A stretch of 64,000 nucleotides of DNA from a phage. Location of the stretch: the NCBI GenBank assembly GCA_029945195.1, contig GCA_029945195.1_4117.1; one strand, given 5' to 3'. This document shows, in pieces, positions 22,022 through 52,359 of the stretch (its first letter is position 1; the number at the start of each line of letters is the position of its first letter). The notes under the pieces are model-generated. The model was not told where the DNA came from and did not search any database. It saw only the letters and a program-made list of their open reading frames with translations. Made by a program: the position numbers and the translations under genes.

Positions 22022-22264
22022 ATGAAAGTACTGACAGAATTAGAAATGTATCATAGATTTAATAAGTACTATCATTTACTTAAACCTATACAGAGGATTA
22101 AGTGTCCCTTTGTAGTGAAACAGGTATTAATTTATGAGCATAAGTTATTTGTATCATTAGGTACGAATGAACAAGATTATTATTTGAAGTTGTACTTAAT
22201 TACTTTAATTGAATTGATTAATTCCAAAACTCAGAAAGCGAAGAAATATAAAAATGAAAACTAA
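22022..22264 (+). CDS. family-A array protein (LGTNEQ)
   Basis: track ORF trimmed to ATG 22022. Confidence 0.6.
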   Translation: MKVLTELEMYHRFNKYYHLLKPIQRIKCPFVVKQVLIYEHKLFVSLGTNEQDYYLKLYLITLIELINSKTQKAKKYKNEN

Positions 22265-22595
22265 AATTCAACTCAGGGTATACATATCGTATGAAAATAT
22301 ATACGTTAAAAGTAGTCTATGTAAAGATGTAATGGACTACAAAGGTAAACCATTCACAGTTACTTACAGTTTAACAGGAGGTTTATATATCTCTTTTGCT
22401 AATTACGAAAATAATATGTACGAACACATTGACATTGAAGATTTAAGTACTTTATCACCAGAGGAATACTTCCAGGAATCATTAGTATGGGATTTAGAGT
22501 TCCCTATGCCATTAGTACATAAGATGATAGTACTAATGAAAGAATCTAAACAGGAGCCTAATGGTGATTATGAAGAACACATTATTGAGTATTAA
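22254..22595 (+). CDS. family-B array protein (EExYFQxS motif)
   Basis: LSPEEYFQESLVWD; first family-B member. Confidence 0.6.
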   Translation: MKTKIQLRVYISYENIYVKSSLCKDVMDYKGKPFTVTYSLTGGLYISFANYENNMYEHIDIEDLSTLSPEEYFQESLVWDLEFPMPLVHKMIVLMKESKQEPNGDYEEHIIEY

Positions 22596-22685
22596 GAGTT
22601 CTGATAGTACTGAGAGTACAAATGTTCTTGACAGTACTTTTCATTACTGATATAGTGCACCAACGTTAATCATAGGGTACAGATT

Positions 22686-22931
22686 ATGTTGAATTTTTTA
22701 AATTTCCTTATCGTCTTGTGTATTGTTCTTGGGATTGCACCATTTGTATTGTATTTCATGGATTCAGATGAAATGCAGAAGATGAATTGCACAAGGACAG
22801 GACAGAGTAGAGTAGAGACGATTCTTATGCCTGTTACGGTTATTGTTAACAACATGCCAATTACGAACATGGTCCCTACCCTAACGACAACGTACCAGTA
22901 CTCTTGTACAGACGGAGAGAGGTGGAGATAA
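22686..22931 (+). CDS. small membrane protein (81 aa)
   Basis: hydrophobic N-terminus LNFLIVLCIVLGIAPFVLYF; promoter-like TTGACA..TATAGT upstream. Confidence 0.45.
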   Translation: MLNFLNFLIVLCIVLGIAPFVLYFMDSDEMQKMNCTRTGQSRVETILMPVTVIVNNMPITNMVPTLTTTYQYSCTDGERWR

Positions 22932-23254
22932 TGCGTAAATTCAATTGTATTGTACGTAAGAATTCATGTTACATTGTAGTAGCTGATTTTAATACGGGTT
23001 CTGGGTTGAAGATATTTGAGTACAGAAAATGTAATAATTCTTTTCATTGGAAATTAGGTGCAAGAAAAACAAATACAATTTCAGTACCGAATTTATGTTC
23101 TATCTCTGAAGAAGAAGAGTTTCAGTACATGTTAGTACACGATGATTCTTTAGGTTTTACATTAGAAGATATGAAGAAAGTGCAACAGCAGATGATTGCA
23201 CATTGTCATCTTCCAAAGAATTTTGTTCAACACGTATGTGAATTCCACATATAA
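22931..23254 (+). CDS. family-B array protein
   Basis: track ORF trimmed to ATG 22931 (SD GGAG); SEEEEFQYMLVHDD. Confidence 0.55.
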   Translation: MRKFNCIVRKNSCYIVVADFNTGSGLKIFEYRKCNNSFHWKLGARKTNTISVPNLCSISEEEEFQYMLVHDDSLGFTLEDMKKVQQQMIAHCHLPKNFVQHVCEFHI

Positions 23255-23362
23255 GAGAAGAATATGAAATTTAATATTCACAGAATGAAGATCAATGTTG
23301 ACACTCCATTTGAATAGTGTTAACATGTTTACCTATTCAATTTTAAGATAAGGTACAATGAT

Positions 23363-24172
23363 ATGAAATTTTTAACAGAATCTGAAGCAACCAATTTGAT
23401 TATGAAAAAATTTAGTTCTGGTGATTTAAAGAAATCAGCATCTTACAAAGGTTCAGTTGCCTTGAGTTTATATCTTGGTACAAATTATCAGGAAGCAGCA
23501 CAAGAGCAATATATTAATGCATTAAAGGAAGAGATTCGAGAAAAAATTAAAATTAATAAAGATTGCAGTACTGATTTTTCAATTGAAAAGTTATTGAATA
23601 TGTTTGTCAATACAACAGAGACACCAAGAAAAGAAGATGTTGGTTTAGGTCATGTAAGTGATTTTATGTACGCAGCATATGAATCTTTAGTACAGACTGG
23701 GATTGCTAAATCTGTAATTGAAGTGCATCGTAAATTTGAAGAAGGTGATGAAATTAGACAATTAGTTAAAGATAAAGAAAATAAGATTGGTCGTTTATTT
23801 GTTATTAAGGACAATGATAGTTCTTCATATATTTTGATTAATACAGATAAGACATTCAATTATTACAAGGATTTACATTATTATATGATTACCAATTACG
23901 GAATATCCTATTTAAGAAGTAATTGGGAAGTTGAATATGTATTTTATTTTAACAAACATTCGCATGGTTCAACAAGAACAAAAGATTTATATGAGCAAGC
24001 ATTAATGATTGCTACGCCTAATGAAAATGGCATTTTCAGTAAAGATTACGATAAGGTATTGGAACGTTTAAAACACAGAGCTTCGTGCGGGACAATGCCG
24101 TGTGATTATAGTATTACACAATACAATAAAAATTATCATTGTGGTGTTTTTAAGGAACAATATAAATCATGA
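23363..24172 (+). CDS. chimeric protein: family-A motif N-terminus + about 200-aa unique C-terminal domain (269 aa)
   Basis: LGTNYQEAAQEQYINALKEEIREK at residues 38-61, then unrelated C-terminal region. Confidence 0.6.
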   Translation: MKFLTESEATNLIMKKFSSGDLKKSASYKGSVALSLYLGTNYQEAAQEQYINALKEEIREKIKINKDCSTDFSIEKLLNMFVNTTETPRKEDVGLGHVSDFMYAAYESLVQTGIAKSVIEVHRKFEEGDEIRQLVKDKENKIGRLFVIKDNDSSSYILINTDKTFNYYKDLHYYMITNYGISYLRSNWEVEYVFYFNKHSHGSTRTKDLYEQALMIATPNENGIFSKDYDKVLERLKHRASCGTMPCDYSITQYNKNYHCGVFKEQYKS

Positions 24173-24489
24173 AATTTAATATAGCAAAAACATCTAATGT
24201 ATGTATATTTGGTTATGCTGATGAGTTAGGTGATCTTGACATTCTATTGTACAAAAAGGATGGTGTTATGCATTTCAAGTACCAGGATGAAGAGGCAGAC
24301 AATTATCCTTTACCTAATTTAGTACAAATGCAGGAAGAGGAATTATTCCAGTACAGCTTAGTATATGACATTGATATTTGCACGATGCCAGTACTAATTA
24401 ATATTCAAAAAGTGATGCTCGATGTGTTTGATAGGCTAATACAAGGCACACAAGGAAGAACCATATATGTCAATGTACAAGACAATTAA
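24169..24489 (+). CDS. family-B array protein
   Basis: QEEELFQYSLVYD; ATGA overlap. Confidence 0.6.
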   Translation: MKFNIAKTSNVCIFGYADELGDLDILLYKKDGVMHFKYQDEEADNYPLPNLVQMQEEELFQYSLVYDIDICTMPVLINIQKVMLDVFDRLIQGTQGRTIYVNVQDN

Positions 24490-24682
24490 TCAAGAATGGA
24501 AGACCCAAAAGTACAGGGAATTCAGTACTAGTTTAACAAAAGATGCATTGAATTTAAAAAGAACAGAGTTTGATATGTTTATTTTTCTTGGAACACGTTC
24601 ACAAGAACAATACATTCATTATTATATAAGTTCATTGCGAACGGAGATCGTATGCAAAACACAGGGTATTATAAAAAAGTAA
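24467..24682 (+). CDS. family-A-like protein (LGTRSQ) inside family-B zone
   Basis: motif FLGTRSQEQYIHYYISSLRTEI. Confidence 0.55.
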   Translation: MSMYKTINQEWKTQKYREFSTSLTKDALNLKRTEFDMFIFLGTRSQEQYIHYYISSLRTEIVCKTQGIIKK

Positions 24683-24918
24683 ACCAATATTTGTACGCTA
24701 CAAAGTACAGGGATTTTTGTTTAAAGGGTGGTGATGAAGATTTTTCTTTGCGATTATCAGAATTTAATCTGTTATTTTATCTTGGTACATCGGAACAAGA
24801 AGAAATGGCACAGAAATTTATCAAGCACCTTGAACAAAAAATTCATATGCAAATTTTGATGCTTAAGGTACATAATGAGATAAACAAATATGAACCCAAC
24901 AATAGTACAGGATCTTAA
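24652..24918 (+). CDS. family-A-like protein (LGTSEQ)
   Basis: motif YLGTSEQEEMAQKFIKHLEQKI. Confidence 0.55.
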   Translation: MQNTGYYKKVNQYLYATKYRDFCLKGGDEDFSLRLSEFNLLFYLGTSEQEEMAQKFIKHLEQKIHMQILMLKVHNEINKYEPNNSTGS

Positions 24919-25633: not shown

Positions 25634-26179
25634 ATGAATGAGATAGAATTATTAGCACACAAGATTAGTACAATAATGCTTATCCTCAATAACAACCATC
25701 CTATATCGCAGATAGATGGAATCCTGAGTCAGAGGACAGGTGGTAGTTTATATTTGACATTAACAGAGGTTATCGCAAGGAATTACATTGATATTGAAAT
25801 CGAGAACAGTGATGCATCAGGAAAGGTTGATGTAGGTGCATTAATCAGTTCAAATCCAGTATCAGCATCCCCATTGACCAAAGGTGTTAGTACAGGATTC
25901 GAAGGGTATTTGTGGTACAATACCAATGATGATTATTTTATATATCAGCATTCCAATACAAATTATGATGAAGACAAATTTCAGTTCATAGACCCTTATG
26001 ATGAAGCTGAAGTATTTCAAAAATCATTAATCACAAAACCGCATGAGATGATGTATCTAATGTTATTCAGTACAATGCATTTGAATCCATTAATTAAAGG
26101 TTTAAAATTTTATATTCAATTGAATTTAGTCCATGTAGTTTATGATTTATTAATGCAAGGATATAGTTATGAAGTATAA
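25634..26179 (+). CDS. family-B array protein
   Basis: DEAEVFQKSLITKPHEMMYLMLF. Confidence 0.55.
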   Translation: MNEIELLAHKISTIMLILNNNHPISQIDGILSQRTGGSLYLTLTEVIARNYIDIEIENSDASGKVDVGALISSNPVSASPLTKGVSTGFEGYLWYNTNDDYFIYQHSNTNYDEDKFQFIDPYDEAEVFQKSLITKPHEMMYLMLFSTMHLNPLIKGLKFYIQLNLVHVVYDLLMQGYSYEV

Positions 26180-26486
26180 AATGCTTAATACAGTATCAGG
26201 GGTATATGTAGAATTAGAATCCGATTATTCAGATGGATGGAATTTTATTAAACGACACGATAGAAATACATGGTACATGGCACATTTGGATAATGACGTA
26301 ATAATAGATAATTTTGTCGATTTTAATACATTATCAGAAGAAGAATTTTTCCAAATGCAATTTGTGCTTGATACAAATGGATTTGATTTGCTATTATTAA
26401 GGAATATTCAGAAAGCGGTTAATGAATTCATAATCCAAAATAATTCAGGTAAAATGGGGATGTTCCATGATCTGGAAGTACAATGA
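26169..26486 (+). CDS. family-B array protein
   Basis: LSEEEFFQMQFVLD. Confidence 0.6.
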   Translation: MKYKMLNTVSGVYVELESDYSDGWNFIKRHDRNTWYMAHLDNDVIIDNFVDFNTLSEEEFFQMQFVLDTNGFDLLLLRNIQKAVNEFIIQNNSGKMGMFHDLEVQ

Positions 26487-27024
26487 AATTCAGTACACCT
26501 ACGCTAATGCAATCCTTATGGGACAAAAGTTAGCTTGTATTGTTGCAGCCTTATATAATGCACAGAAAGATTACAAGCGTCATATTCACAAATGTATTGG
26601 TATTATTCCATCGAAGTACAATACATATATTGCGTGCACGAGTCATTTTGATAAACGATTCAATACACCTGATACCCCAAATTCCCGTAGTGTTATTGGT
26701 CTTTTGGATTTCGCCCCTGGTGCTGTTATTGGAAAGAATGATTTAGAGTACGCATGGTATAATAAAAATGCCCCGTTAGTAATGGTAAAATATGATACAG
26801 AAACGAACAAAACAATAGAGTACAATACATATAAATCAGAGGAAGAATTTTTCCAAGGTTCATTGCTTGTGCCAGTGCGTTTGTTGTTTTATAATGTCCT
26901 TATTAGTACAGTACACAATAGTCCATTACACAAGAATCACAAAATTAATTTCAATTTTTGTGCTTATGCAATTGATGGTGTGTATGAGTGTTTAATGGAG
27001 GTATTGAGTTATGAAGCTGAATAA
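26467..27024 (+). CDS. family-B array protein
   Basis: KSEEEFFQGSLLVP. Confidence 0.6.
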   Translation: MIWKYNEIQYTYANAILMGQKLACIVAALYNAQKDYKRHIHKCIGIIPSKYNTYIACTSHFDKRFNTPDTPNSRSVIGLLDFAPGAVIGKNDLEYAWYNKNAPLVMVKYDTETNKTIEYNTYKSEEEFFQGSLLVPVRLLFYNVLISTVHNSPLHKNHKINFNFCAYAIDGVYECLMEVLSYEAE

Positions 27025-27352
27025 TACATTTGATATTAATAAGTTAAGAGAATGGTTTTATAGTATTGAAATTGAAGCCATCCCATATCATAGATATGAA
27101 CAATATAATTTAACCAGTATTGATATCAGTGAGTTGTACGCGTATTATCAAAGTGCATTAGAGATGCATAAGTTATTTTTGAGTACAGATTTTGTTCTAA
27201 ATTACAATTTTGAGGAATTTAATAATTATAATTTAGTACAGAAATATGTAGTAGCAAAGTATATGTACCTTCAAGGAATTACAAGTAATTTGGAATTCAA
27301 TACAGTCCTTGCTTTAGTTGAGGTAATTTTATGCAGTACATGTATGATTTAG
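27011..27352 (+). CDS. hypothetical array protein (motif degenerate)
   Basis: ORF track; tandem position. Confidence 0.45.
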   Translation: MKLNNTFDINKLREWFYSIEIEAIPYHRYEQYNLTSIDISELYAYYQSALEMHKLFLSTDFVLNYNFEEFNNYNLVQKYVVAKYMYLQGITSNLEFNTVLALVEVILCSTCMI

Positions 27353-27837
27353 AGTTTAGTTTAGATGCTGCCTTTAAATTTGTTCACAAGATAGAAACAA
27401 TATACAGTACATTATGTGCAATACAATCAGTATCATCTGAGTTTGATGTTGGTGAAAAATATCAGGTATGGAATAATACATTTCTTAACAAAGAACGTTG
27501 CTCTACGGGGTTTAATATTTTAACATTTAATCCCAGCAATTGTTACCCAGAGAAGCATGAACGTTATCCGAATGACGACATGTGGTTTGATTACACAAAA
27601 GATGGTGATATGTCATCCCTTGTAGTTCCTGATGATTTTAATGCCGAAGATTTAACGGAAGAGTGGTGGTTTCAACAGAATTTAGTACACGATGATATTG
27701 ATTTATTTTTTTATGTAGTATTTAAAATGCTTTACCACAACAATATATTAAAAGATAGTGTGTTTTTTTCATGTCTATATATTGATGATTTGTACAATGA
27801 AATCCAAATCAACATACCCAGAACGCCTGTATCGTAA
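27331..27837 (+). CDS. family-B array protein
   Basis: LTEEWWFQQNLVHDD. Confidence 0.6.
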   Translation: MQYMYDLEFSLDAAFKFVHKIETIYSTLCAIQSVSSEFDVGEKYQVWNNTFLNKERCSTGFNILTFNPSNCYPEKHERYPNDDMWFDYTKDGDMSSLVVPDDFNAEDLTEEWWFQQNLVHDDIDLFFYVVFKMLYHNNILKDSVFFSCLYIDDLYNEIQINIPRTPVS

Positions 27838-27919: not shown

Positions 27920-28432
27920 GTGAGTTTCATAATCCCTAGTACATACGAAGATGCATCAAGTGCAGTTCATAAGATTCATTATATTTTTAATTTAATTATT
28001 AGATCTGCAAAAATTAAAATGTATGCACCTCTTGTGGAATACGATAAAAATGAGGAAATTTTTGTTAGCACAGACCAAATTATTTTTCCATATTTCAATG
28101 AAGATAGATTGTGGTTCATGCATTTAGCTGCATTACAAAAATATAAAATGTCAATTCGTAATAATTTGGATATACCGTTATATCATCCTGATATTGGAGA
28201 GGATGAATATTTTCAGTACAGTACAGTACACCGCCATGAAGATATCTTTGTTGCTATGCTTATTGCTAAATTGAATACCGTTGATTTGGAGCAGTACAAA
28301 TACAATAATAAATCATGTAAGATCATAATCCCTGCATTCATAGCTCTTTATGATTATGTGGTGCATAACAAAAAAGATGATACATATGCTTTCAATGAAG
28401 AGTATTTGAATTTTTTTAAGGAGAACATATGA
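27920..28432 (+). CDS. family-B array protein (GTG start)
   Basis: track ORF 27758-28432 trimmed to GTG 27920: SD AAGGAG 27906-27911; GEDEYFQYSTVHRHED. Confidence 0.5.
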   Translation: MSFIIPSTYEDASSAVHKIHYIFNLIIRSAKIKMYAPLVEYDKNEEIFVSTDQIIFPYFNEDRLWFMHLAALQKYKMSIRNNLDIPLYHPDIGEDEYFQYSTVHRHEDIFVAMLIAKLNTVDLEQYKYNNKSCKIIIPAFIALYDYVVHNKKDDTYAFNEEYLNFFKENI

Positions 28433-28956
28433 GCAGTGAAGTGCTGAAATCAATGACATTCAATGAAATTGGTACATTTAAAGATAAGATCATTGATTGC
28501 ATTGAATACATGATTTGTAGTAATATCGAAAGTATCGAGATATTTAACAAGACAAATCGCTCTTACCATATGATGTACATTGCAAACAATAATGGTATCA
28601 TTCCATTTATTTCGGATAGTACAATATGGTACGCATGTGATACGAAAAAATACACAGCAGGTTCGTATAGCTTAGGGTCACATACGGAATTGATTATTCC
28701 TGAGCATTGTATGAAAGAAGAAGAATATTTTCAAATGCAATGTATACATTCACCATTAGTGTTGTTTAGTTTATATATTATACCTTATATCACCAAATGT
28801 GTTCATGAGAATAAAGCTCCGTGGAATCATGAATTTGTATCGTTGAAGTTATTGTATAATGTATTAGTAGAATATTATGATTACAGGCACAATGGTACAA
28901 TCAGTGATGTATGGGATTTTGAATCGCTAAGGGTGAAAACATACACAGGTGAATGA
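28429..28956 (+). CDS. family-B array protein
   Basis: MKEEEYFQMQCIHSP; ATGA overlap. Confidence 0.6.
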   Translation: MSSEVLKSMTFNEIGTFKDKIIDCIEYMICSNIESIEIFNKTNRSYHMMYIANNNGIIPFISDSTIWYACDTKKYTAGSYSLGSHTELIIPEHCMKEEEYFQMQCIHSPLVLFSLYIIPYITKCVHENKAPWNHEFVSLKLLYNVLVEYYDYRHNGTISDVWDFESLRVKTYTGE

Positions 28957-29572
28957 TATGACCAGAATTAAAATGTATGATTTGATGCAGTACAGTAAAA
29001 TTGCCATTCCAGTGCTTAATAAAGTGCTGGATGCATTCATTGCCAAATACCCTGAGAATTCAGTGTTATGTATTCCATTTAGTGTTCCAGATAAAGATGA
29101 TATATTCCAAGTGAATGTCAGTACACGTGGTATTACATTACAGCAGAAATACATGGATACGGAATATTATGGAATAAAGTTGGATTCAGTACAGGGTTCA
29201 AAATCAGCCTATGATTTTTTTGTTCCTAATAATATAGAGTCATGGGAAACAAACATTTCAAAGAAAGATGAAAATGATGTTCCTATTAGTGGTGTGTTCA
29301 ACAATAAAGTTTTTTATTATTACGAAACCGACAAATTCCCTGAAGAGTTATATTACAATTCAGAAATGAATGAAGATGTAGATGCATTCATGTTTCAATT
29401 ATCTTTAGTACATGATATCATTGATGTTCAAGAGTTAAGAGCAGAAATCAATTTAGCTAAAGAGTTATCGGACATGCTGCCACCGTTTAGTATGCTTTTT
29501 TGTGAAGGTGGTTATTTTTCAAAAGAAGTGTTTGAACATTTCGTAGATGTTGTAAAAGGGTTGGATATATAG
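28949..29572 (+). CDS. family-B array protein
   Basis: EDVDAFMFQLSLVHD. Confidence 0.55.
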   Translation: MNDMTRIKMYDLMQYSKIAIPVLNKVLDAFIAKYPENSVLCIPFSVPDKDDIFQVNVSTRGITLQQKYMDTEYYGIKLDSVQGSKSAYDFFVPNNIESWETNISKKDENDVPISGVFNNKVFYYYETDKFPEELYYNSEMNEDVDAFMFQLSLVHDIIDVQELRAEINLAKELSDMLPPFSMLFCEGGYFSKEVFEHFVDVVKGLDI

Positions 29573-29776: not shown

Positions 29777-30292
29777 ATGCATCAACACAAGCATCATTCA
29801 TATGATTTTGCAATTAACATTATGAAGTTCATTCGAGCGTTGGAGGATGGGAAGCTTAGTCATAAGTACACCAAAGTAGGTGACAATTGGTTCAGAAATG
29901 ATGATGAGTTCAGAAGTCATAAGATTGTTTACAGCAATAATTACAGTGCCAATTACCTACAAGATGTAGTGATGTGTTTTGAATACGTGTTGCAGTTCAG
30001 GGGTTCAATCCAGGATGAGTTGATGGAGCACATGTACATCCGATACCTTCCAATGCTCAAAGATGAAAATGTATTATTAAATTCAATATACCAACGAGTT
30101 CGTGAAATTGAGTGCAGGGATATATTAGATACAGAAGAATCGTATTTCCAGCAATCCCTGATTTATGCACCTGATTTATTACAGGTACATAATTTGTTTA
30201 ATACATTACGTCAAAACATCAGTACAGACATATTTTTGTCATTATCGGATTATGATACATTTGTCAAAGATTTAGAGGAAATAGGTTTATGA
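29777..30292 (+). CDS. family-B array protein
   Basis: DTEESYFQQSLIYAPD. Confidence 0.6.
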   Translation: MHQHKHHSYDFAINIMKFIRALEDGKLSHKYTKVGDNWFRNDDEFRSHKIVYSNNYSANYLQDVVMCFEYVLQFRGSIQDELMEHMYIRYLPMLKDENVLLNSIYQRVREIECRDILDTEESYFQQSLIYAPDLLQVHNLFNTLRQNISTDIFLSLSDYDTFVKDLEEIGL

Positions 30293-30633
30293 GTCGATTT
30301 TCGGTTTATATAGTAAACGTCAGTAAAGATGGTAGTTTAATTGAATTTGATGTAGTTGATAACAATGATAATTCATATGGTATTAAGGTACAGGACAATG
30401 ATGTACAGTTCAGTACAAGGACAAATTTTGAGAATCCAGTCCAAGTTCCGAATTTCATAGAAGATGAAGCTGCACGATTCCAATACGAAACGGCATATGA
30501 CAATGTACATATGCATATTATTATGCAAACGAGTTTAGTTCAATTAGTTCCTTTGTTCAGACAAAATATATATGTACATGAAGTGTCGATTAATGGCATT
30601 CAAAGTTCCGTTTTGTTCGGTACAAATATGTAA
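30289..30633 (+). CDS. family-B array protein (divergent)
   Basis: EDEAARFQYETAYD; ATGA overlap. Confidence 0.55.
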   Translation: MSRFSVYIVNVSKDGSLIEFDVVDNNDNSYGIKVQDNDVQFSTRTNFENPVQVPNFIEDEAARFQYETAYDNVHMHIIMQTSLVQLVPLFRQNIYVHEVSINGIQSSVLFGTNM

Positions 30634-32368: not shown

Positions 32369-32529
32369 TGGAATTTGATTTTTTAATATCAGTACATTCT
32401 TTTAAGCACAGTTATCAGTACTTTTGTAATTTAAACAAAGGTGATTTGATTATGGATACAGATACAGAGGCTGTATACAGTTCTAATATTCTGTACAAAT
32501 TCAGTACTAATCTGAAGGAGATTTTATGA
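32368..32529 (+). pseudogene. truncated duplicate of the N-terminus of gene 32894-33250
   Basis: first ~85 nt ~85% identical to 32894-32981 (MEFDFLIS..HSYQYFCNLNKGDL), then diverges to early stop (53 aa). Confidence 0.5.
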
Positions 32530-43971: not shown

Positions 43972-44482
43972 AGATGATATTCTAATTAGACTAATCAACA
44001 GTCTGTTAAATTTCGTGAATAGTGCCAGTGATACACACAATATAGGTGACATTGAATTCAAATCATTTGGAATGTACGGTGAGGAAAAAACATATTATGC
44101 ATCAATGAAATTCCAAGATTATTATGAAATGTTAGTTTCATTATCATACGAAGATGTGGACCCAAGATGGAGTTCCAGTATTTCACTATCGAGAATGGTA
44201 ATTCGTAGTAAACATCGTTACATTTCGTCAAAGAATACTCCCAACTTGTTTGATATTGTTTTAAATGAAAATACCAATCCTATATCTAAACATGATATCG
44301 TACCTTTAACTGATGAAGTACTTTTTCAATTGAGCACCATTTGTGATGAAGATGTGATATCATGTATGAAAATTTATGAGAAGGTTGGGAGTGATATTCC
44401 CATGAACTATTACCTAACGATAGATGGAACATACCTCAGAGATGAAGCTCTAGCGTACATTGACAGTGTTTTACCAAAATAA
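43964..44482 (+). CDS. family-B array protein
   Basis: track ORF trimmed to ATG 43964; TDEVLFQLSTICDED. Confidence 0.55.
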   Translation: MDKDDILIRLINSLLNFVNSASDTHNIGDIEFKSFGMYGEEKTYYASMKFQDYYEMLVSLSYEDVDPRWSSSISLSRMVIRSKHRYISSKNTPNLFDIVLNENTNPISKHDIVPLTDEVLFQLSTICDEDVISCMKIYEKVGSDIPMNYYLTIDGTYLRDEALAYIDSVLPK

Positions 44483-44504
44483 AGACCCGTATTGGGTCTT
44501 TTTG
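44483..44504 (+). terminator. rho-independent terminator inside array
   Basis: AGACCC-GTATT-GGGTCT then TTTTG. Confidence 0.6.
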
Positions 44505-44570
44505 TGTTTACGTCTTTACAGTAGCATTCAGATGTGTTATAATCGCTTTTAATAGAGTACAGGAGAAGAT

Positions 44571-45137
44571 ATGAGTACTGAATTAATTAAAGAAGTTACC
44601 TTACTTCTGAAGCATTGTTTTAAGTTCATTCCTGATACTGGTTCACGCCAGTACATTAAAGTTAATGAGAAATATAACATCAATATCCTTGTATCTGAAA
44701 CTGCGAGCAGTTATGCTAACATTGAGTTGGATTCTGAAGAAAAATATACAGTATTACAAATCATAGCAGATGTACAACGTAAACAAGATTATCGTTCTTC
44801 ATTTTACAACGATTATCTGTGTGTTTGCTCAAACTTCAGTGAGAATAAAATTGTGTATAAGAATTTATACACACATGAAGTGATTGATACATATAATTAT
44901 AAAATTTCATCTGATGAATACAATGTGCTAATGTTCAACGCAAACCTTTTGTATGATGCCAGTACTGTACGCTGTTTAGAGTTAGCATATAAAATTCCAA
45001 AGATCATGGAAAGAAAAGATTTGATTCACTTTAAAACTATTTTAAAATACAGTACAAAAGAATTAGAGGATTTAGTACAGGCTCTTAAGAATTTCATTAA
45101 TGAACATGTACCTGTTAAATTCGAGGATGCACAATGA
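44571..45137 (+). CDS. hypothetical array protein (motif degenerate)
   Basis: ORF track; SD AGGAG; promoter-like TGTGTTATAAT upstream. Confidence 0.5.
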   Translation: MSTELIKEVTLLLKHCFKFIPDTGSRQYIKVNEKYNINILVSETASSYANIELDSEEKYTVLQIIADVQRKQDYRSSFYNDYLCVCSNFSENKIVYKNLYTHEVIDTYNYKISSDEYNVLMFNANLLYDASTVRCLELAYKIPKIMERKDLIHFKTILKYSTKELEDLVQALKNFINEHVPVKFEDAQ

Positions 45138-45718
45138 ACCATATCAGAACTAAAATTTTGAGACTCATGCATGACATTGCAGAACTTTCAGAGATTCATG
45201 ACATTACAGAAATTGTTGAATTTGATGATTATCGACTGAAAATTGAAAACAAATCCAAACATCGTTTTGGATCAGTTCAGTTGGATGTATATAAAACTTA
45301 TGAATTTTCTAAAAAAATTAAAAGTTCATGGGATACGATTACTATGTACATTCGCACATCCAGAAATCGTGAACGTATTGGTTCTATTTCTTCTAATATG
45401 GTATTTGCGAATGCATTACATGAAAAAATGAATAAAATTGTAGAATCTAATTTCAGTGAAGATGATGGATTTATTGGGTTGGATGTTCCACCAGAATTAG
45501 ACCAAAGTGAAGATATTCGAGATGCATTCATTTTCCAGAAATCCTTGTTGGACAATTACAAAGAATTCGAGTACTTAATGCTTTGTTACGATACTGCAAA
45601 AGTTCTTGATTGTGGTGAACTAGTTATGTACAATGATTTTATCAATTACAAGACTGATGTTCTGAATACACTACTTCAAAATATAGAATCGGTTAAGGAA
45701 AAATATGAACGCTTATAG
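45134..45718 (+). CDS. family-B array protein
   Basis: IRDAFIFQKSLLDN. Confidence 0.55.
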   Translation: MNHIRTKILRLMHDIAELSEIHDITEIVEFDDYRLKIENKSKHRFGSVQLDVYKTYEFSKKIKSSWDTITMYIRTSRNRERIGSISSNMVFANALHEKMNKIVESNFSEDDGFIGLDVPPELDQSEDIRDAFIFQKSLLDNYKEFEYLMLCYDTAKVLDCGELVMYNDFINYKTDVLNTLLQNIESVKEKYERL

Positions 45719-46283
45719 TTATATGACAGAACGCCATCAGTTATTATATGATATCAGTACAAAAATGTTATCAATTGTTAGTAGTGCAAAAGAAATTGAA
45801 AAACAATACCTCATCCGTGATGTAGCAATTTCATCTAAATGTTGGTCCAATGAATATTACGATCACGGTATTCTTACTATTTCTGGGGCTAGAAATATTT
45901 GTATTGTAAAAAATAAAAATAAAAGTAATGAAGAGTGTGAGATTAGAACCGATATACAAATTAAGGATGATGGAAGTTTTTCACACCACCCATTCCATAT
46001 TAGTACTATTAGTGTTTTATATAATATTAAAGTACTATTCGGTGATGAAGAGTATGTGTTAAAAGCTATCAATCCAGATTCAAGTACAGTTGAAGAAGAA
46101 CTGTTCCAGATGAGCACTGTTATACCTGAAGAGGTTCTTAGTACTGTTATTTTTTGTAGTTTAATTTATCATGAATACAAAAAGTTCCAGTTCGATTTCC
46201 ACATGTTAGGAACATACATCTTCAATAATTTGAATGTAGATCGTTTAACAGCATTAAATGCAGCAATGGATAAGGTGCTATAA
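45705..46283 (+). CDS. family-B array protein
   Basis: TVEEELFQMSTVIPEE. Confidence 0.6.
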   Translation: MNAYSYMTERHQLLYDISTKMLSIVSSAKEIEKQYLIRDVAISSKCWSNEYYDHGILTISGARNICIVKNKNKSNEECEIRTDIQIKDDGSFSHHPFHISTISVLYNIKVLFGDEEYVLKAINPDSSTVEEELFQMSTVIPEEVLSTVIFCSLIYHEYKKFQFDFHMLGTYIFNNLNVDRLTALNAAMDKVL

Positions 46284-46711
46284 TGACAAGAGATGATTGT
46301 TTGTACATATGGGATATAATTGAAACTACACTTTCAAATCCAGAAAATTATAAAACAAAAAAAAGACAACGACACAAAATATGGATAGATTTGTTCGTTG
46401 AGGGCATACACGCAGTGACTATTTGGGATTCACCGAGGGCATCAGCATCTACTCTGTTGGACAATGAATGCATTGATTGCATTAATTCCACTTTTCATCT
46501 CCACGGTACTACAATTTTTGGTACATTTCTGGATATTGAAAGTAAAGATGATATTGATTCACTTGCGTTACAATACCAAGTACTATATAATACTAAATTA
46601 ATTTACGATTTAGTACTAGCTTCTTATGTGTATAAATTAATGATGAAATATAATCATATTTCTGTTTCAGTTTATACTAAGGATATTCTTTCATTAAGAG
46701 ACAAAACATGA
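46283..46711 (+). CDS. hypothetical array protein (motif degenerate)
   Basis: ORF track. Confidence 0.45.
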   Translation: MTRDDCLYIWDIIETTLSNPENYKTKKRQRHKIWIDLFVEGIHAVTIWDSPRASASTLLDNECIDCINSTFHLHGTTIFGTFLDIESKDDIDSLALQYQVLYNTKLIYDLVLASYVYKLMMKYNHISVSVYTKDILSLRDKT

Positions 46712-47217
46712 GTTTATTAAATGCACGAGAATTAGTTGAGATGTATGAGATCTTATCTTCATATAAAAATTCTCCAAAAGATGTAATTCTAAACAAAAAG
46801 TTCCATGTCAGTGTTGAACATATAACAAATATAGATATGATTTCTTTGGTGGAAAGTAATAAGTCAGGTCTGGAGCGTGATATCATGCGTTTGATTTATA
46901 TTCCTAAACCATCATATACTAATGATAGTACTATTAGCAATGAGACATTCATGTATAGTCCTGGTACGGATTCTACTATAGTATCGCTGTCCAATAAATC
47001 AATGGATACTTTCCAATTCATCTATACCAGTACTGATAACATTGAAGAAATTGAATTTCAAAACAATACATTAAGTCCATGTAGTAGTGTTATAACCTTT
47101 ATGTCATATCTATGGTCAACTAAAACAAGTGCTGTTGTATATAGTTCAAATTATACACAAGATAGTATTGTTGAATCATATAAAGTTCTAAAGGAATACT
47201 ATGAAAATAACAAATGA
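46708..47217 (+). CDS. family-B array protein (divergent)
   Basis: NIEEIEFQNNTLSP. Confidence 0.5.
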   Translation: MSLLNARELVEMYEILSSYKNSPKDVILNKKFHVSVEHITNIDMISLVESNKSGLERDIMRLIYIPKPSYTNDSTISNETFMYSPGTDSTIVSLSNKSMDTFQFIYTSTDNIEEIEFQNNTLSPCSSVITFMSYLWSTKTSAVVYSSNYTQDSIVESYKVLKEYYENNK

Positions 47218-47782
47218 TTTTATTAAAAGTGTAGTACACCCTATGCTTAGTATTATGAAAAAAATACAGAATCTACCGGAAGATAACGATTACAAGTTTA
47301 ATCGTTTTGATTCAGATGTGTTTTGTATTGAAATTGAAATTAATAACAATCGTAATTTACATTTAAAATTCAAAGAATCTTCGAGTCCGTACTACAACTT
47401 TGATATGAATTTTAAAATAGATACTGACATTGAAGAAAACATAATATCAAATCATACTAGCAAAAATGGTTTTATGCATAGAACTACTATGTACAATAAT
47501 AAAAATAGTATTATATCTAAATGGAATCAACAATTCACTAAAATTTGTGAAATTGAATATAATGATTTTGGTGAAGAACATTACTTTCAGTTAAGTACAA
47601 TTCATGAACTTCCACCATATGATTATGTTAAAACATGGTTTGATATTCATAATATAATTGATGATGCAATCAAACTTCCATTTGGTGTGTCAATATCATA
47701 TACTGCTCCTAAAACATTTGTTTTTACTGAAGATATGATTATGAAAAAGATATGGGCAATCATCCCACTTATGATGGATTAA
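47201..47782 (+). CDS. family-B array protein
   Basis: FGEEHYFQLSTIHE. Confidence 0.6.
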   Translation: MKITNDFIKSVVHPMLSIMKKIQNLPEDNDYKFNRFDSDVFCIEIEINNNRNLHLKFKESSSPYYNFDMNFKIDTDIEENIISNHTSKNGFMHRTTMYNNKNSIISKWNQQFTKICEIEYNDFGEEHYFQLSTIHELPPYDYVKTWFDIHNIIDDAIKLPFGVSISYTAPKTFVFTEDMIMKKIWAIIPLMMD

Positions 47783-47788: not shown

Positions 47789-47813
47789 ACCAGGGGTTGA
47801 CTCTGGTTTTTTT
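47789..47813 (+). terminator. rho-independent terminator inside array
   Basis: ACCAG-GGGTTGACT-CTGGT then TTTTTTT. Confidence 0.55.
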
Positions 47814-47843: not shown

Positions 47844-48395
47844 ATGAACTACAATCATGATCTTTTTACATTATGTGCATCCAAATGTGTTGAAGGATGG
47901 GCAGATAAAATCAATACCATAATTCATCGATATCTCGTCTTTAGTTCCCGTGCACGAAGTGAGGGGGCTATGGATTTCAAATATACACTATCTATTGATG
48001 GTGTAACTATCCATGCAGACGAAGAACGTCTGAACATTAATTTGTATGATTCCTGTGTATTTGCTATTCACCAAAAGATGGGGAAAGGATGGGGTTGTAA
48101 TAACATTAACTCCAAAGCTATCTTTTGGGTTGGTCACCATCAGACAGTACTTGATCCTTCAATCAAATCTAATCTTTTATCCGATAATATGGTTTATGAT
48201 TTATTGTACTCCGAAGAACAACATTTTCAGTTAAGTACATTACATGATCTGGCACAGTACGAGGATTGTTACAAAACATTAGAACTATGCCATTCCCTTG
48301 AACTTAAAGATAAATTGATACAAGTTTACCCTTCATTCTTTCATGAAGAAGTACAAAGTACACTAGATCATATTTTATATGGATACGATAAATGA
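47844..48395 (+). CDS. family-B array protein
   Basis: YSEEQHFQLSTLHD; SD AAGGAG. Confidence 0.6.
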   Translation: MNYNHDLFTLCASKCVEGWADKINTIIHRYLVFSSRARSEGAMDFKYTLSIDGVTIHADEERLNINLYDSCVFAIHQKMGKGWGCNNINSKAIFWVGHHQTVLDPSIKSNLLSDNMVYDLLYSEEQHFQLSTLHDLAQYEDCYKTLELCHSLELKDKLIQVYPSFFHEEVQSTLDHILYGYDK

Positions 48396-48994
48396 GAAAA
48401 AGTTATCAAGAAGCTATTGACTTAATTCGTGAAGTTATCAAGGTGGCTCCTGCTGCTATTGAGTTCAAGAAGTCCATATACAAGAAGTATGGTTCAATGT
48501 CGAGTATGTGCTTTCAAAAGAAACGTAGAGCATTCACTACCCAGTACTGGAATGATTCTATCATCCTGAGCAATGAGACTCAGCGTATTTTAACACTAGA
48601 ATCTGAACCTAATGAGTACGGGGAAGGGAACATTTGTGTACCTGATTATGATGAAATTAACTTCAACTGCGGTGATTTTGAAACAACATTATTACTTCAT
48701 GAGGGTTATCCAGAAGGTGATGTATTAGCTGAGTACAATCCAAAAACTAAAATTCTCAAAAGAGGAATCCAGTTCACTATTAATAACAAAGATGATGTTC
48801 AAGCAGCACTGATGCAACTGAGTACAAGTGAACCTATCACTATTAGTGTAGAAGAGTTATGGGGAATTATTTCAGTACTCAATGAGTGCTACAAAGTAAA
48901 ATCATTGCGTAAACACAGCATTATATTACATACCAATATGGCAAATATAAAATGTAAGCACATTCAAGAAATGGTGGTTCCAGATGGACTTTAA
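48392..48994 (+). CDS. family-B array protein (divergent)
   Basis: DVQAALMQLSTSEP. Confidence 0.5.
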   Translation: MRKSYQEAIDLIREVIKVAPAAIEFKKSIYKKYGSMSSMCFQKKRRAFTTQYWNDSIILSNETQRILTLESEPNEYGEGNICVPDYDEINFNCGDFETTLLLHEGYPEGDVLAEYNPKTKILKRGIQFTINNKDDVQAALMQLSTSEPITISVEELWGIISVLNECYKVKSLRKHSIILHTNMANIKCKHIQEMVVPDGL

Positions 48995-49568
48995 AGAAAT
49001 TGAAAGTAAATTAAAGTACTTCAAAGATATCAAACTTCTTTGGAAAAAGTATAAAGTTGATTACAATTTCAGTGATGATGAGACAATAAAATACATTGAG
49101 ATTAATATCAAAATCAAGTTCAAGAATAATAATTATGGTGAAGTAACCTTAAATCATACTGGTATATCACTCAAGGACTATGATGGTACAACACTCGCAT
49201 ATTTTGACTTCACACCAGAACCAGGTGAAACACTACTTAGTGAGATAAATTCCTATGACATGGAAGTGTTCGGCGGGAATCCGTTACTGTTCCGACTTTC
49301 TGAAGAGTGGAGTGAAGAGTACTACACTTACAAAGATGGTGTAGTACTTGATATTCATGGAGAAGTTGTGAATGACTTGGAAGAACGTTTGTTCCAAGAA
49401 TTGTGTGTTTCAAATACTTCATATGCATACAATCATATCCTTGACATGTTTGATTTATATAGTAAAATAGATGCTGAAATGAAGGCACATGGTATTCATT
49501 ACCTTACAATTAACGACTATGCTCAACTCGAAACCGCTGTGAAAGCATTGACTAAAGTACTGAAATAG
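48984..49568 (+). CDS. family-B array protein
   Basis: LEERLFQELCVSN. Confidence 0.5.
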   Translation: MDFKEIESKLKYFKDIKLLWKKYKVDYNFSDDETIKYIEINIKIKFKNNNYGEVTLNHTGISLKDYDGTTLAYFDFTPEPGETLLSEINSYDMEVFGGNPLLFRLSEEWSEEYYTYKDGVVLDIHGEVVNDLEERLFQELCVSNTSYAYNHILDMFDLYSKIDAEMKAHGIHYLTINDYAQLETAVKALTKVLK

Positions 49569-49577: not shown

Positions 49578-49991
49578 ATGAAACTGTATCATGCGAGTAC
49601 TGTAAAAATTGATAACTTTTATATCCCGTATGGTGGTCTTCATATGGGAGGTAAACACAGTGCTTTGGAAGCTGCATTACGCAAGCTGAGAAGCCCACTG
49701 AACGTAGTAGACGCATGTACAGTATACTTGCATACCTTAGAAGTTGATGTTGATAACGTGCTTCTGTGTGAAGATTTAGGCAGTGATGATGAGTGGCGTT
49801 CACTTATTGAGAATTGCACTGCTCAAGGTTATGATGCTGTTCAGTACAAAAATGATTACGAGCCAGACAATGTTCCTAGCTTTATGATTTGGGATGCATC
49901 TAAAGTTCGCATCATTGAAGTTGATGCTATGCATATGGATGAAGCTGAAATGATTATCGAAGATTTTCTTGATGAATATGAAGGTGTATAA
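49578..49991 (+). CDS. hypothetical protein (137 aa), non-family insert in array
   Basis: ORF track; no family motif, composition looks less AT-rich by eye. Confidence 0.5.
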   Translation: MKLYHASTVKIDNFYIPYGGLHMGGKHSALEAALRKLRSPLNVVDACTVYLHTLEVDVDNVLLCEDLGSDDEWRSLIENCTAQGYDAVQYKNDYEPDNVPSFMIWDASKVRIIEVDAMHMDEAEMIIEDFLDEYEGV

Positions 49992-50527
49992 TGTCTGAAC
50001 CGATGGTAGCACTGGCACGTACAAAATTACTATTAAAGATTGGTGAGATTTTTACGGTTCTTCTGTCCAATAATATTGATATCACTGAGCTAGATATTAA
50101 GCAACCGTGGGAAGTGACTATGTTCTCGGCGTTCCACCGATTGTCATATAAAGGTGAAAGTGTTCTTGATTTTAACCCTAAAGCAAAATTCATAGATTAT
50201 GCTGCGTTGTACAGAGAGTTGCACAGAAATATTTATTCCGGTTGTATAACCAATAACTTCAAAGAAATTAAAGTTCAAACTGCATCACATGAGTTCAATG
50301 ATTTACTTTATCCAGAATTTAATCTAACAGAAGAATTACTCTTTCAGTACTCGTTAATTCTCACAAATCTCGAAACACTAGAGTTCTACAAAGAGTTAGT
50401 AGATATTTTTATGAATACACGACTTTCAAAAGATATTGTGATATTCTGGTATACAGAGCATGTTACGGAGGAATTGCTTACTGAATTTCTTCTAAATATG
50501 ACAGCTATAAAGGAGAAGTTATGTTAG
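49991..50527 (+). CDS. family-B array protein
   Basis: LTEELLFQYSLILT. Confidence 0.55.
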   Translation: MSEPMVALARTKLLLKIGEIFTVLLSNNIDITELDIKQPWEVTMFSAFHRLSYKGESVLDFNPKAKFIDYAALYRELHRNIYSGCITNNFKEIKVQTASHEFNDLLYPEFNLTEELLFQYSLILTNLETLEFYKELVDIFMNTRLSKDIVIFWYTEHVTEELLTEFLLNMTAIKEKLC

Positions 50528-50994
50528 ATATTTTAGGAAACATCGATACTGCAAATTATTTTATCCAGGACGCACTGTTCAATACAGTTCAACAAGGATT
50601 AGAAGTTCGTCATAACGTTTACCAAGGTGATGGTTATTTCGTTGATATTGTTGAGGCACGAAAGAATACGTTTAATGTTAACATTACAACACTGGGTAGA
50701 CAGAACATTGCACGAATTTTAGTAAGTAAAGATGAAATTGTATTGAGATACAGTGCTAAGTTTATGTTGACTTATAAGAAAAAAACTGATATGTTCAGTA
50801 CTAATTTATTTGATGAGCCATTTGACCTTGAAGATATTGAAGCTACTTTCTTTACTCAAAGTACTATGGTAAAATACACTGATGTTCAATTTTCTGCTGA
50901 TGTAATGTCAGAAACATTACAAATGATCAAGGTATTATTTTATGCATTTGAGCAATTTAGAGAAGAAAGAAACAAGGTTAACAACCACAGATGA
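50521..50994 (+). CDS. family-B array protein (divergent)
   Basis: EDIEATFFTQSTMV. Confidence 0.5.
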   Translation: MLDILGNIDTANYFIQDALFNTVQQGLEVRHNVYQGDGYFVDIVEARKNTFNVNITTLGRQNIARILVSKDEIVLRYSAKFMLTYKKKTDMFSTNLFDEPFDLEDIEATFFTQSTMVKYTDVQFSADVMSETLQMIKVLFYAFEQFREERNKVNNHR

Positions 50995-51007
50995 ACTAAT
51001 AGAGGCG

Positions 51008-51355
51008 ATGACTAAGGAGTCAAAATACCACAAAGGGATTCGTCTATATTTTATAGATATTGGTTCAATGGAAGGCATATACATTTATGGTTCACAATCT
51101 TTATCTTATGATGTAATGCCAAAAAAACATGTAAAAATCTTTTTAGGTTCAAATAAAAAAACTTTCTTGACAATTAATGATAAAAACGTTATTATGAATT
51201 CGTTGGGTCATGATAAGGTGGAAATTGATCTAAACACACTGGAGGATATTGATTTTTTTCAATACGAGTGTTTAGGTGTTGACTTACATGGCATTAGTAG
51301 CGATATGATAAAATCATTAATCAAATATTTCGAAGGTGTTCATAAATGTATCTAA
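51008..51355 (+). CDS. family-B array protein (divergent)
   Basis: track ORF 50942-51355; start uncertain, ATG 51008 chosen to avoid overlap; EDIDFFQYECLGVD. Confidence 0.45.
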   Translation: MTKESKYHKGIRLYFIDIGSMEGIYIYGSQSLSYDVMPKKHVKIFLGSNKKTFLTINDKNVIMNSLGHDKVEIDLNTLEDIDFFQYECLGVDLHGISSDMIKSLIKYFEGVHKCI

Positions 51356-51843
51356 CTAAATCAATGAAAAATTCATTTGATAAAATCAAGAGTTGTCTTG
51401 ATGGGGAAAATATTACAAGTGTTACACAAACTGCTGACCAAATTCAAAGCAGTTCAAGTGATTGTACTGTTATTTTAGGTTTACATAGTCTACGTTTATC
51501 AATAGTAAATAATATTGACAACACTGCTATTGTAATCACACCATGCCATATTCAAAATGAGAATGGTGTATATCTTCATCACATGGGAACAGTATTTCAT
51601 ATTTTCAATACAAACGAAAACATTGTTAAGGAATACAAATCTCTTAATATTGATTCAGGTGAATTATTTCAAATGAGTACTTTGTACTCATGTAATTTTA
51701 CAGATACTTCATGTATTTTGCCATTTTTCTTGGAAATTATTAAGAAAATGGAAAATTTAAAACGTGAATACAATAAAGAAATGGTTCCTGAAGCTATATT
51801 AAATATTACTAATGCTATAGAGAAGTATAATGCAGTGACTTAA
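51346..51843 (+). CDS. family-B array protein
   Basis: DSGELFQMSTLYS. Confidence 0.55.
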   Translation: MYLTKSMKNSFDKIKSCLDGENITSVTQTADQIQSSSSDCTVILGLHSLRLSIVNNIDNTAIVITPCHIQNENGVYLHHMGTVFHIFNTNENIVKEYKSLNIDSGELFQMSTLYSCNFTDTSCILPFFLEIIKKMENLKREYNKEMVPEAILNITNAIEKYNAVT

Positions 51844-51885
51844 TAAAAACGCACATGGAGTGCATTAGAAGATCAAGGATAGATC

Positions 51886-52359
51886 ATGGAGATTAAAACT
51901 GTTGAAAATGGGAAAATTGATGACATTTTAGAGTTGGACGCATTCAAAGTTCATGATATAATGTTTAATGTGAAGGACATTATTCAATGTCTATTTTTGT
52001 GTAGCAAGACAATGCATGATTTTTTTCACAACCCAAATACTAACGTTTTTATACTAACAATCAGTACTGAAAACTCGTTTATCATGGGTATGCCTATGAG
52101 TACAAATGAACAATATATTGATTGTGTTATTCGTAATAACGATAGTATTACGCCACAATCTGAAGTACGTAAAAAGAAAAACACCTACACAATCAAAGAT
52201 GATAAAATTATGATGTGCTGTAGTAAAGGGTTTATATTAGATAATTTTATCGTCAAAGACAGTTATCACGACTTTAAAGTGTCTGAAAATCAATCCAATG
52301 TAGTTCTTTATGCGAGTGACATAGAAAGTCTAACAGTTAAAGATCCCAGTTTGGAGTAA
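51886..52359 (+). CDS. hypothetical protein (157 aa)
   Basis: ORF track; SD AAGGA. Confidence 0.5.
   Translation: MEIKTVENGKIDDILELDAFKVHDIMFNVKDIIQCLFLCSKTMHDFFHNPNTNVFILTISTENSFIMGMPMSTNEQYIDCVIRNNDSITPQSEVRKKKNTYTIKDDKIMMCCSKGFILDNFIVKDSYHDFKVSENQSNVVLYASDIESLTVKDPSLE

Follow-up and report, generated by a model that had tools for sequence, protein, structure and literature searches.

The families MGF110, MGF360 and MGF505 of African swine fever virus (ASFV) and the Bcl-2-like and ankyrin/PRANC host-range families of poxviruses, which form the comparison set used here, are multigene families (MGF) shown to modulate host range and innate immunity. Expansions were also described from jumbo phages. 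Approximately 35 zinc-ribbon copies in Bacillus phage G were termed unprecedented (Iyer et al.), tandem duplication was proposed as a route to jumbo genome size, with an array of more than 30 genes cited in phage 121Q (Hua et al. 2017, PMC5646251), and about 10% of the proteins of Klebsiella phage RaK2 were identified as paralogs by the RaK2 authors, who gave nothing further on them. Here we present the analysis of a tandem array of small genes, family B, located at positions 22254-52359 of a stretch of phage DNA of 64,000 nucleotides (contig GCA_029945195.1_4117.1 of assembly GCA_029945195.1), which is referred to as the window. Family B is a real, ancient and selectively maintained multigene family with an unmatched fold, limited to RaK2-like jumbo phages. 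Its 42-50 copies exceed the approximately 35 of phage G, and the array seems to rank among the largest expansions of a gene family known from phages.

Like the ASFV and poxvirus families, family B comprises tens of diverged tandem paralogs near one end of the genome of a very large double-stranded DNA virus, appears to be non-structural, varies in copy number between lineages by birth and death, and combines a conserved core with variable surfaces. Unlike them, it belongs to a virus with a bacterial host, and it has no sequence or fold similarity to them. With the expansions in phages G and 121Q it shares the inflation of a jumbo genome by tandem duplication, but it is a different family, larger and far more diverged, with an unmatched alpha+beta fold. 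A further likeness is to early phage host-takeover blocks (the SPO1 terminal-redundancy module, the T5 pre-early region, the T4 hyperplastic regions and the early genes in the terminal repeat of PA5oct), which are also unidirectional runs of small uncharacterised genes close to one end of the genome. Their strong host-type promoters and their terminators have predicted counterparts here, and their products, like those of the array orthologs in phAPEC6, are not found in the virion. Those blocks consist mostly of unrelated genes, whereas here one family accounts for about 70% of the open reading frames (ORFs) across 30 kb.

Segments of 10-12 kb of the window, compared using megablast, showed 96-99% identity to the Asteriusvirus jumbo coliphages 121Q, PBECO4, G17, Sharanji, SHEFM2K and phAPEC6; in all annotated Asteriusvirus records examined, the array genes are labelled 'hypothetical protein'. 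The array is positioned approximately 25-55 kb from the left end of the long records CRJP21 and E9.1, which probably include the terminal repeat. Positions 22254-52359, of whose length family B occupies 77%, hold 70 non-nested ORFs on the + strand; the approximately 20 ORFs outside the family are five genes of another family (family A, see below) and unrelated small ORFs. The head-to-tail layout with ATGA overlaps that a first-pass annotation of the sequence had described was confirmed: the region is 98% coding, 15 junctions are 4-nucleotide overlaps (ATGA in 13 of them), and only seven gaps exceed 20 nucleotides.

Of the 70 region ORFs, 24 contain the strict motif [DE]E.[YFLMW]FQ, which is found in none of the 97 other ORFs of the window; the mean expectation in composition-preserving shuffles is 0.07, so the motif is not an artefact of low complexity. 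The pattern FQ.[STNQ] is present in 41 of the 70 (about 4 expected). The median relative position of the motif within the ORF is 0.67, in agreement with the two-thirds reported earlier. Membership was assessed with a hidden Markov model (HMM) of a 60-residue module, seeded on the motif and iterated to convergence on the window ORFs, with 3340 shuffled and 167 reversed sequences as decoys. This model matched 40 window ORFs at 23-70 bits and no decoy, the next ORFs scoring 14 bits or less; when ORFs of phages Ecwhy_1, RaK2 and GAP32 were pooled with them and faced with an equal number of decoys, 42 window members and no decoy were obtained. Each remaining ORF was aligned with its orthologs and compared with the family profile using hhalign (probable at expectation values (E) <1e-3, possible at 1e-3 to 1e-2), which added five probable and three possible members, nine control ORFs being at E ≥0.04. 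Family B thus comprises 41 firm members in the region, one firm member outside it (62928-63506), five probable and three possible ones, i.e. about 47-50 copies in the window, 49 of them within 22254-52359. The last ORF of this range, 51886-52359, was not detectable as a member.

Similarity is not restricted to the short motif: it extends over the module of about 60 residues in all members and over the full length within each of two size classes, long and short, which are in turn homologous to each other (hhalign probability 93%, E 3e-7). An origin of the signal in DNA repeats was rejected, as repetition at the DNA level is limited to the motif codons and to one recent burst of five genes. The tandem paralog family with a shared core that had been proposed from the sequence is therefore borne out by the module HMM with its zero decoys and by the class alignments. 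The proposed number of about 60 paralogs was too high, because HMM and hhalign together give 47-50, and families A and B jointly make up 48% of the window rather than more than half. The two had also been taken for one paralog system. Family A comprises about 30 tandem copies of a protein of about 70 amino acids at 16619-22264, with the motif L-G-T-N-Y-Q-E...Y-I..L...I; against family B it gave hhalign probabilities of 0.1-0.2% (0.1% for the long and 0.15% for the short class), compared with 93% between the classes of B, and it forms separate BLAST clusters. Judged by these comparisons, family A is separate from and unrelated to family B.

Members of the long class (150-200 amino acids) can be aligned end to end and display, in this order, an N-terminal helix (SALExAKxI), a beta region, the segment [ST]-E-E-x-Y-F-Q-x-S-T-x-Y-D, a hydrophobic helix, an F-Y-L-D strand and a final helix. 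Members of the short class (105-125 amino acids) have a five-strand sheet, the common motif and a helix with a conserved Q. AlphaFold2 models were built with paralog alignments for one sequence per size class. The long-class model (40702-41178, +) reached a predicted local distance difference test score (pLDDT) of 82 and a predicted template modelling score (pTM) of 0.81; the short-class model (32526-32894) reached a pLDDT of 74 and a pTM of 0.71. In both models the motif is the start of a helix that packs on the sheet, with a segment pLDDT of about 90. Each member is predicted to contain a variable antiparallel beta-sheet followed by a conserved helix, which opens at [S/T]-E-E and carries the invariant F-Q. 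A tight turn (S-T-V-x-D) would connect this motif helix to a second, largely hydrophobic helix, and long-class members are predicted to have an additional N-terminal helix and a C-terminal FYLD strand and helix. Among paralogs of approximately 20% identity, the polar residues E105, Q109 and S111 show little or no variation. The N-terminal parts, although divergent, still predict a common beta-sheet. Of the hypervariability attributed to them in the first-pass annotation the divergence stands, but not an ongoing diversification, given the common sheet and a ratio of nonsynonymous to synonymous substitution rates (dN/dS) of 0.30. The proteins of family B are soluble and predominantly acidic (median isoelectric point 4.8, net charge -9.5) and have no transmembrane segments. 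A membrane role for the hydrophobic helix after the motif was considered and rejected, the median maximum Kyte-Doolittle-19 score being 0.94; the two exceptions both stem from over-extended ORF calls. No N-terminal targeting sequence is conserved among the members.

Searches of Pfam, NCBIfam and PADLOC yielded no match at the curated threshold or common to the members, only isolated sub-threshold chance matches, and nothing meaningful for family A or for the non-family ORFs of the array either. A sequence-profile search of the PDB gave no match at E up to 10. Foldseek comparisons with viral models returned only uncharacterised proteins of phages 121Q, SP27, RaK2, GAP32, Yersinia fHe-Yen9-03/04, Serratia BF and Erwinia pEa_SNUABM_47. 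Full-length family B matches with E from 1e-43 to 1e-136 were found for phrog_9317, 12674, 13866, 19795, 33775, 38467, 34636, 35972 and 37163 of the PHROGs collection; all PHROGs containing family B proteins are annotated 'unknown function'. PHROGs splits these proteins into many groups with weak cross-hits, whereas the HMM and hhalign comparisons unite them in one superfamily. A word-indexed homolog search detected 23 close relatives only. A profile search of 1.84 billion representative proteins detected 107 clusters at E up to 1e-3 (lengths 55-208 amino acids); 10 of the 107 were sampled, and their named members were all hypothetical proteins of Asteriusvirus or Alcyoneusvirus phages or of an 'E. 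coli' genome with a longest contig of phage size (about 350 kb). This exhaustive HMM search, with 10 of its 107 clusters sampled, brought up no bacterial or distant viral relative that would give a functional hook. In the literature searched, no description of family B or its motif was found; on paralog arrays in Asteriusvirus and Alcyoneusvirus it gave generic remarks only, some of the searches being too broad.

The distribution of the family was determined by HMM scans of RaK2, GAP32 and Yersinia phage fHe-Yen9-03 in the syntenic regions upstream of a conserved pair of dam methylase and cytidylyltransferase genes. RaK2 gave 28 matches with an E limit of 0.01 and 27 when the stricter pooled threshold was applied, GAP32 has 3-4 members within an 11-gene array, and fHe-Yen9-03 has two firm and two marginal matches (about five motif-bearing ORFs). 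Ecwhy_1 gave 39 matches. Copy number consequently differs between related genomes, with about 47-50 here compared to 39 in Ecwhy_1, at least 27 in RaK2, 3-4 in GAP32 and 2-5 in fHe-Yen9-03. Homologous arrays were also found on two metagenomic contigs (Logan), SRR30815946_997 (G+C 28.5%) and SRR31913103_3234 (G+C 34%), one having family B in 18 of its 59 ORFs and the other in 29 of its 42; SRR31913103_3234 includes a run of about 17 consecutive short-class genes. The protein identity of these contigs to known phages is only about 35-40%, and they point to unsampled lineages with independent expansions of the family. The form of the motif is constant over four phage genera and the two metagenomic lineages. 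Family B is confined to RaK2-like jumbo phages. The Salmonella phage SD-1_S14 (OR699183.1, 72000-121000) was considered as a test of host-linked gene loss and discarded as uninformative. This 311-kb Asteriusvirus record is unfit for inference on presence or absence because many of its genes are truncated or split, including a conserved methyltransferase (19% covered); the truncations represent either poor assembly or real genome decay.

Family B is a tandem multigene family, i.e. a lineage-specific expansion, in which homology of the members, variation in copy number and maintenance of the genes are all observed. In Ecwhy_1, which is approximately 86% identical at the nucleotide level, a syntenic 1:1 ortholog (reciprocal best hit) was obtained for 36 of 40 members. 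The median amino-acid identity to this phage is 77% for members versus 85.5% for their non-family neighbours, and the median dN/dS is 0.25 (36 ortholog pairs) versus 0.26. Pooled dN/dS values of 0.30 before the module and 0.25 for the module plus tail indicate purifying selection on both parts. For 24 of 47 members the nearest relative is a RaK2 protein and not a paralog from the same genome. The reciprocal best hits between RaK2 and the window number 17, and RaK2 shares the gene order of the distal third of the array; therefore, much of the duplication in family B predates the split of the Escherichia and Klebsiella phage genera. Order is kept among the Escherichia/Klebsiella phage orthologs at 25-50% identity. 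More recent events are also evident. Some members were gained or lost relative to Ecwhy_1, and the five genes at 33.6-35.9 kb are a recent burst that is still visible as DNA repeats. The copies are maintained genes and not decaying duplicates, a single truncated duplicate (32365-32529) having been seen. The pattern is one of birth-and-death evolution in which the genes are maintained, and it matches neither neutral filler nor, as far as detectable, a fast arms race. As the copies have been kept by purifying selection since before the Escherichia/Klebsiella split, family B does something that these phages need.

Near-consensus sigma-70 promoters are predicted, from sequence matches only, in four of the seven gaps of more than 20 nucleotides; in total, promoter-like sites do not outnumber those in shuffles. 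About 10 + strand promoter matches of at least 11/12 were counted in the 40 kb scanned, three of them inside the gaps, which add up to about 450 nucleotides. On the + strand, the gap promoters are TTGACA-17-TATAGT with TG at 22628-22656 (11/12 match, 90-nucleotide gap), a sigma-70-like promoter with TG at 23298-23326 (10/12, 108-nucleotide gap), the full consensus TTGACA-18-TGaTATAAT at 40639-40668 (12/12, 59-nucleotide gap) and TTTACA-17-TATAAT with TG at 44515-44543, directly after an intrinsic terminator hairpin at 44481-44501; those at 40639 and 44515 have a TGnTATAAT extended -10 element. A further intrinsic terminator on the + strand, at 47789-47807 in a 61-nucleotide gap, is annotated in G17, too. 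The hairpins 44481-44501 and 52471-52491 score as intrinsic terminators on both strands, while nearly all genes are on the + strand. In the related, host RNA polymerase-dependent phage PA5oct, small uncharacterised genes of the terminal repeat are early genes (PMC7318152). The orthologs of the array in phAPEC6 are gp402c-gp466c. The virion proteome of that phage comprises 62 proteins, with no entry between gp347 and gp549 (PMC7247149), so that in this one published mass spectrometry (MS) study none of gp402c-gp466c was found packaged.

Family B is best explained as a clade-specific multigene family that arose as one small soluble protein was duplicated in tandem again and again. The array would be transcribed by host RNA polymerase from sigma-70 promoters, early in infection, and its products would be cytoplasmic, non-virion proteins. 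In their scaffold the conserved helical hairpin may form the shared core, and the diverged sheet and surface could provide every paralog with a separate partner from host or phage. The family would then constitute a battery of host-takeover or anti-defence binders, kept by birth-and-death evolution. That the products are early, non-structural, cytoplasmic proteins with a common core and diverse partner surfaces is, judged from context and with the adaptor variant discussed below included, a proposition for which we see the chances as evenly balanced. Several points weigh against it. The functional reading is drawn from context only. No likeness to a characterised host-takeover or anti-defence protein was found in Pfam, NCBIfam, PADLOC or, by sequence and fold, the PDB. 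No positive selection was seen at the coarse resolution of pairwise dN/dS, and long-term 1:1 retention with ordinary dN/dS fits poorly with a fast arms race. Invariant polar residues (E, Q, S, D) in paralogs of approximately 20% identity could reflect a shared ligand or catalytic site and not a structural core alone. Promoter-like sites as a whole are not enriched over shuffles, and the literature, in searches that were partly too broad, yielded no transcriptome for Asteriusvirus or Alcyoneusvirus. The absence from virions rests on one MS study of 62 proteins, in which packaged proteins of low copy number may be missed.

The near-invariance of E105, Q109 and S111 at about 20% identity, which exceeds the usual demand of fold maintenance, and the constant form of the motif in four phage genera and two metagenomic lineages would also agree with an adaptor family, in which the invariant hairpin is the surface for one shared partner and the variable sheet recruits targets, in the manner of the poxvirus F-box or PRANC adaptors. 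On the other hand, the motif may be purely structural, since [S/T]-x-x-E is a usual N-capping box of helices and F108 probably lies in the interior; in addition, no partner is known. Common docking is credible on these grounds, if on the unlikely side. In its most far-reaching form, family B would be a modular adaptor system that only RaK2-like jumbo phages possess. The invariant EE-x-x-FQ-x-S...D hairpin would dock all paralogs on one shared machine, such as RNA polymerase, the ribosome, a protease of the host or an enzyme of the phage, and each of about 50 beta-sheet surfaces would be responsible for delivering or neutralising another host factor or defence protein. We regard this form as a speculative one, with rather small chances; if true, it would be the phage counterpart of the F-box/PRANC or MGF families on a new fold. 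The motif also resembles a protease cleavage site for common processing, of the kind cut by the tobacco etch virus (TEV) NIa protease, with the consensus E-x-x-Y-x-Q-(G/S). A subset matches this consensus exactly, e.g., TEEGYFQGS at 36553-37002. The residue after Q is highly variable, however (Q, N, Y, E, M, G, L, K or H), the segment is predicted as a well-packed helix with a pLDDT of about 90, and we know of no 3C/NIa-like protease in these phages, for which no exhaustive search was made; processing at the motif is hardly to be expected. Independent of this question, the RaK2 ORFs 27977-28399 and 29823-30314 likewise match the TEV consensus exactly, probably by coincidence, and members with the consensus might be cut when TEV-cleavable tags are used in expression work.

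Two readings concern the array as a whole. According to the ratchet idea (Hua et al. 2017), near-neutral duplicates might fill an enlarged capsid and have no individual function. The proposed duplication route with its 121Q array of more than 30 genes (PMC5646251), the lack of functional annotation and the wide variation of copy number between genera are compatible with such filler. The dN/dS of about 0.25 in 36 ortholog pairs, the intact ORFs and the order-conserved Escherichia/Klebsiella orthologs demonstrate long-term selection on individual copies, by which the filler reading is largely refuted and left improbable. It is more improbable still that the products are packaged or structural, either as internal head proteins or as parts of the 'hairy' fibres of 121Q/phAPEC6, even though these virions are unusually complex, with many unassigned proteins, and acidic internal proteins are known in T4 and phiKZ: gp402c-gp466c are not among the 62 virion proteins of phAPEC6, a conserved N-terminal targeting sequence is lacking, and the block with its sigma-70 promoters is distant from the structural modules. 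Selection thus weighs against the filler reading, the MS data against the virion reading, and the varying residue behind Q, along with the predicted helix, against the cleavage reading. Approximately 7% of a 350-kb genome is given to this one family, which is unnamed in databases and whose fold has no solved match. To know its function would help to explain how jumbo phages that do not form a nucleus gain control of their hosts or escape them, and by what routes phage genomes become larger; it is also of relevance for phage therapy, for which Asteriusvirus and Alcyoneusvirus phages are candidates. Experiments are feasible now, since the phages are in culture and the gene set is defined.

The individual members are all encoded on the + strand; in the following, 'firm' denotes firm by the module HMM, A1 and A3 denote the alignments of the long and the short class, respectively, and RBH denotes a reciprocal best hit. 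The array opens with the short-class genes 22254-22595 (113 amino acids, SPEEYFQESLVWD; HMM E 1e-13; A3), 22931-23254 (SEEEEFQYMLVHD; firm; RBH to RaK2 r22780) and 24169-24489 (firm). The long-class gene 25634-26179 (DEAEVFQKSLITK; firm) and the short-class gene 26169-26486 (firm) are followed by four firm long-class genes at 26467-27024 (phrog_19795, unknown function), 27331-27837 (TEEWWFQQNLVHD), 27920-28432 (GEDEYFQYSTVH; start according to the G17 annotation) and 28429-28956 (without an Ecwhy_1 ortholog). The divergent long-class gene 28958-29572 (DAFMFQLSLVHD) joins only with pooled relatives (E 4e-5). Long-class genes are also found at 29777-30292 (firm; A1) and 30644-31195 (firm), with a possible member, 30289-30633 (ARFQYETAYD; hhalign E 2e-3), between them. 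Short-class genes are located at 31991-32368 (firm; A3), 32526-32894 (the modelled representative, absent from Ecwhy_1), 32894-33250 (firm; A3) and 33247-33606 (firm; A3). The ORF 32365-32529 (54 amino acids) is a truncated N-terminal copy of member 32894-33250 (85 nucleotides, 92% identical; copied stretch 32892-32976), and neither it nor member 32526-32894 has an ortholog in Ecwhy_1; the two resemble the trace that a recent duplication or insertion would leave.

The recent long-class burst (EEYYFQ[QN]S) spans 33616-35937 and consists of the genes 33616-34107, 34109-34579, 34576-35019, 35019-35507 and 35485-35937, with HMM scores of 61-70 bits, a mutual identity of 35-56% and the DNA-level repeats D1-D3. 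It is followed by a divergent short-class gene (35934-36248; HMM E 2e-6 with pooled relatives), the long-class gene 36553-37002 that carries TEEGYFQGS (firm; A1), a probable member (37002-37535, DEQCFQLSCTD; hhalign E 1.7e-4; RBH to RaK2 r23117) and a long-class gene at 37890-38450 (firm; A1). Three firm short-class genes lie at 39049-39411 (phrog_13866), 39401-39778 (absent from Ecwhy_1) and 39757-40098. The long-class gene 40106-40642 (firm; A1) precedes the modelled representative of its class, after which come 41175-41645 (long; firm; RBH to RaK2 r29823), 41635-41997 (short; firm), 41981-42394 (short, with a C-terminal extension; HMM 24 bits), 42394-42885 (long; firm; A1), the probable member 42869-43411 (hhalign E 7e-7; RBH to RaK2 family member r33569) and the firm long-class genes 43408-43971 (RBH to RaK2 r32429) and 43964-44482.

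Downstream of the promoter at 44515-44543, probable members are found at 45134-45718 (DAFIFQKSLLDN; hhalign E 1e-4 over 60 columns), 46708-47217 (IEEIEFQNNTLS; E 6e-6; RBH to RaK2 r35849) and 48392-48994 (AALMQLSTSE; E 5e-4; RBH to RaK2 r38097), and possible members at 46283-46711 (E 1.6e-3) and 50942-51355 (DIDFFQYECLG; E 4e-3). The long class is represented by 45705-46283 (firm; A1), 47201-47782 (firm; RBH to RaK2 r36328), 47844-48395 (HMM 27 bits), 48984-49568 (41 bits), 49991-50527 (32 bits; RBH to RaK2 r39109) and the array's last member, 51346-51843 (30 bits; RBH to RaK2 r40564). The ORF 49578-49991 (137 amino acids; MKLYHASTVKIDNFYIPYGGLHMGG...) lies inside the array, is not a member and has no Pfam match; with 88% identity to its Ecwhy_1 counterpart it is the clearest foreign gene in the distal array. 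The outlying member 62928-63506 (EHFQISTLYD; HMM 23 bits) is located beyond the range given by the first-pass annotation.

Copies of family A are interspersed in the array of family B at 23363-24172, 24467-24682, 24652-24918, 37510-37731 and 37709-37900. The first of these (269 amino acids) clusters by BLAST with the family A proteins of about 70 amino acids and lacks orthologs in both Ecwhy_1 and SD-1_S14; it could be a fusion of a family A domain with additional sequence. Family A, at 16.6-22.3 kb, is most likely what Hua et al. (PMC5646251) referred to as the array in 121Q. A third small paralog family comprises five consecutive genes of about 90-100 amino acids at 58911-60320, which form a single BLAST cluster, and two more paralog pairs were found (4017-4301 with 12957-13235 and 4692-5015 with 10461-10784). 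The G+C content falls from 37-40% over positions 1-16000 of the window to 30-33% over both paralog arrays and beyond, and the GC skew is strongly positive across the window, with a maximum of 0.19-0.24 at 28-36 kb. The upstream early-type region at 5000-9000 is highly mosaic: 79 phage records, a few of which bear the names of Campylobacter, Acinetobacter and Erwinia hosts, match it, each in 5-8 separate pieces, and the insertions of relatives at this place include an acetyltransferase gene and a DksA-like zinc finger gene.

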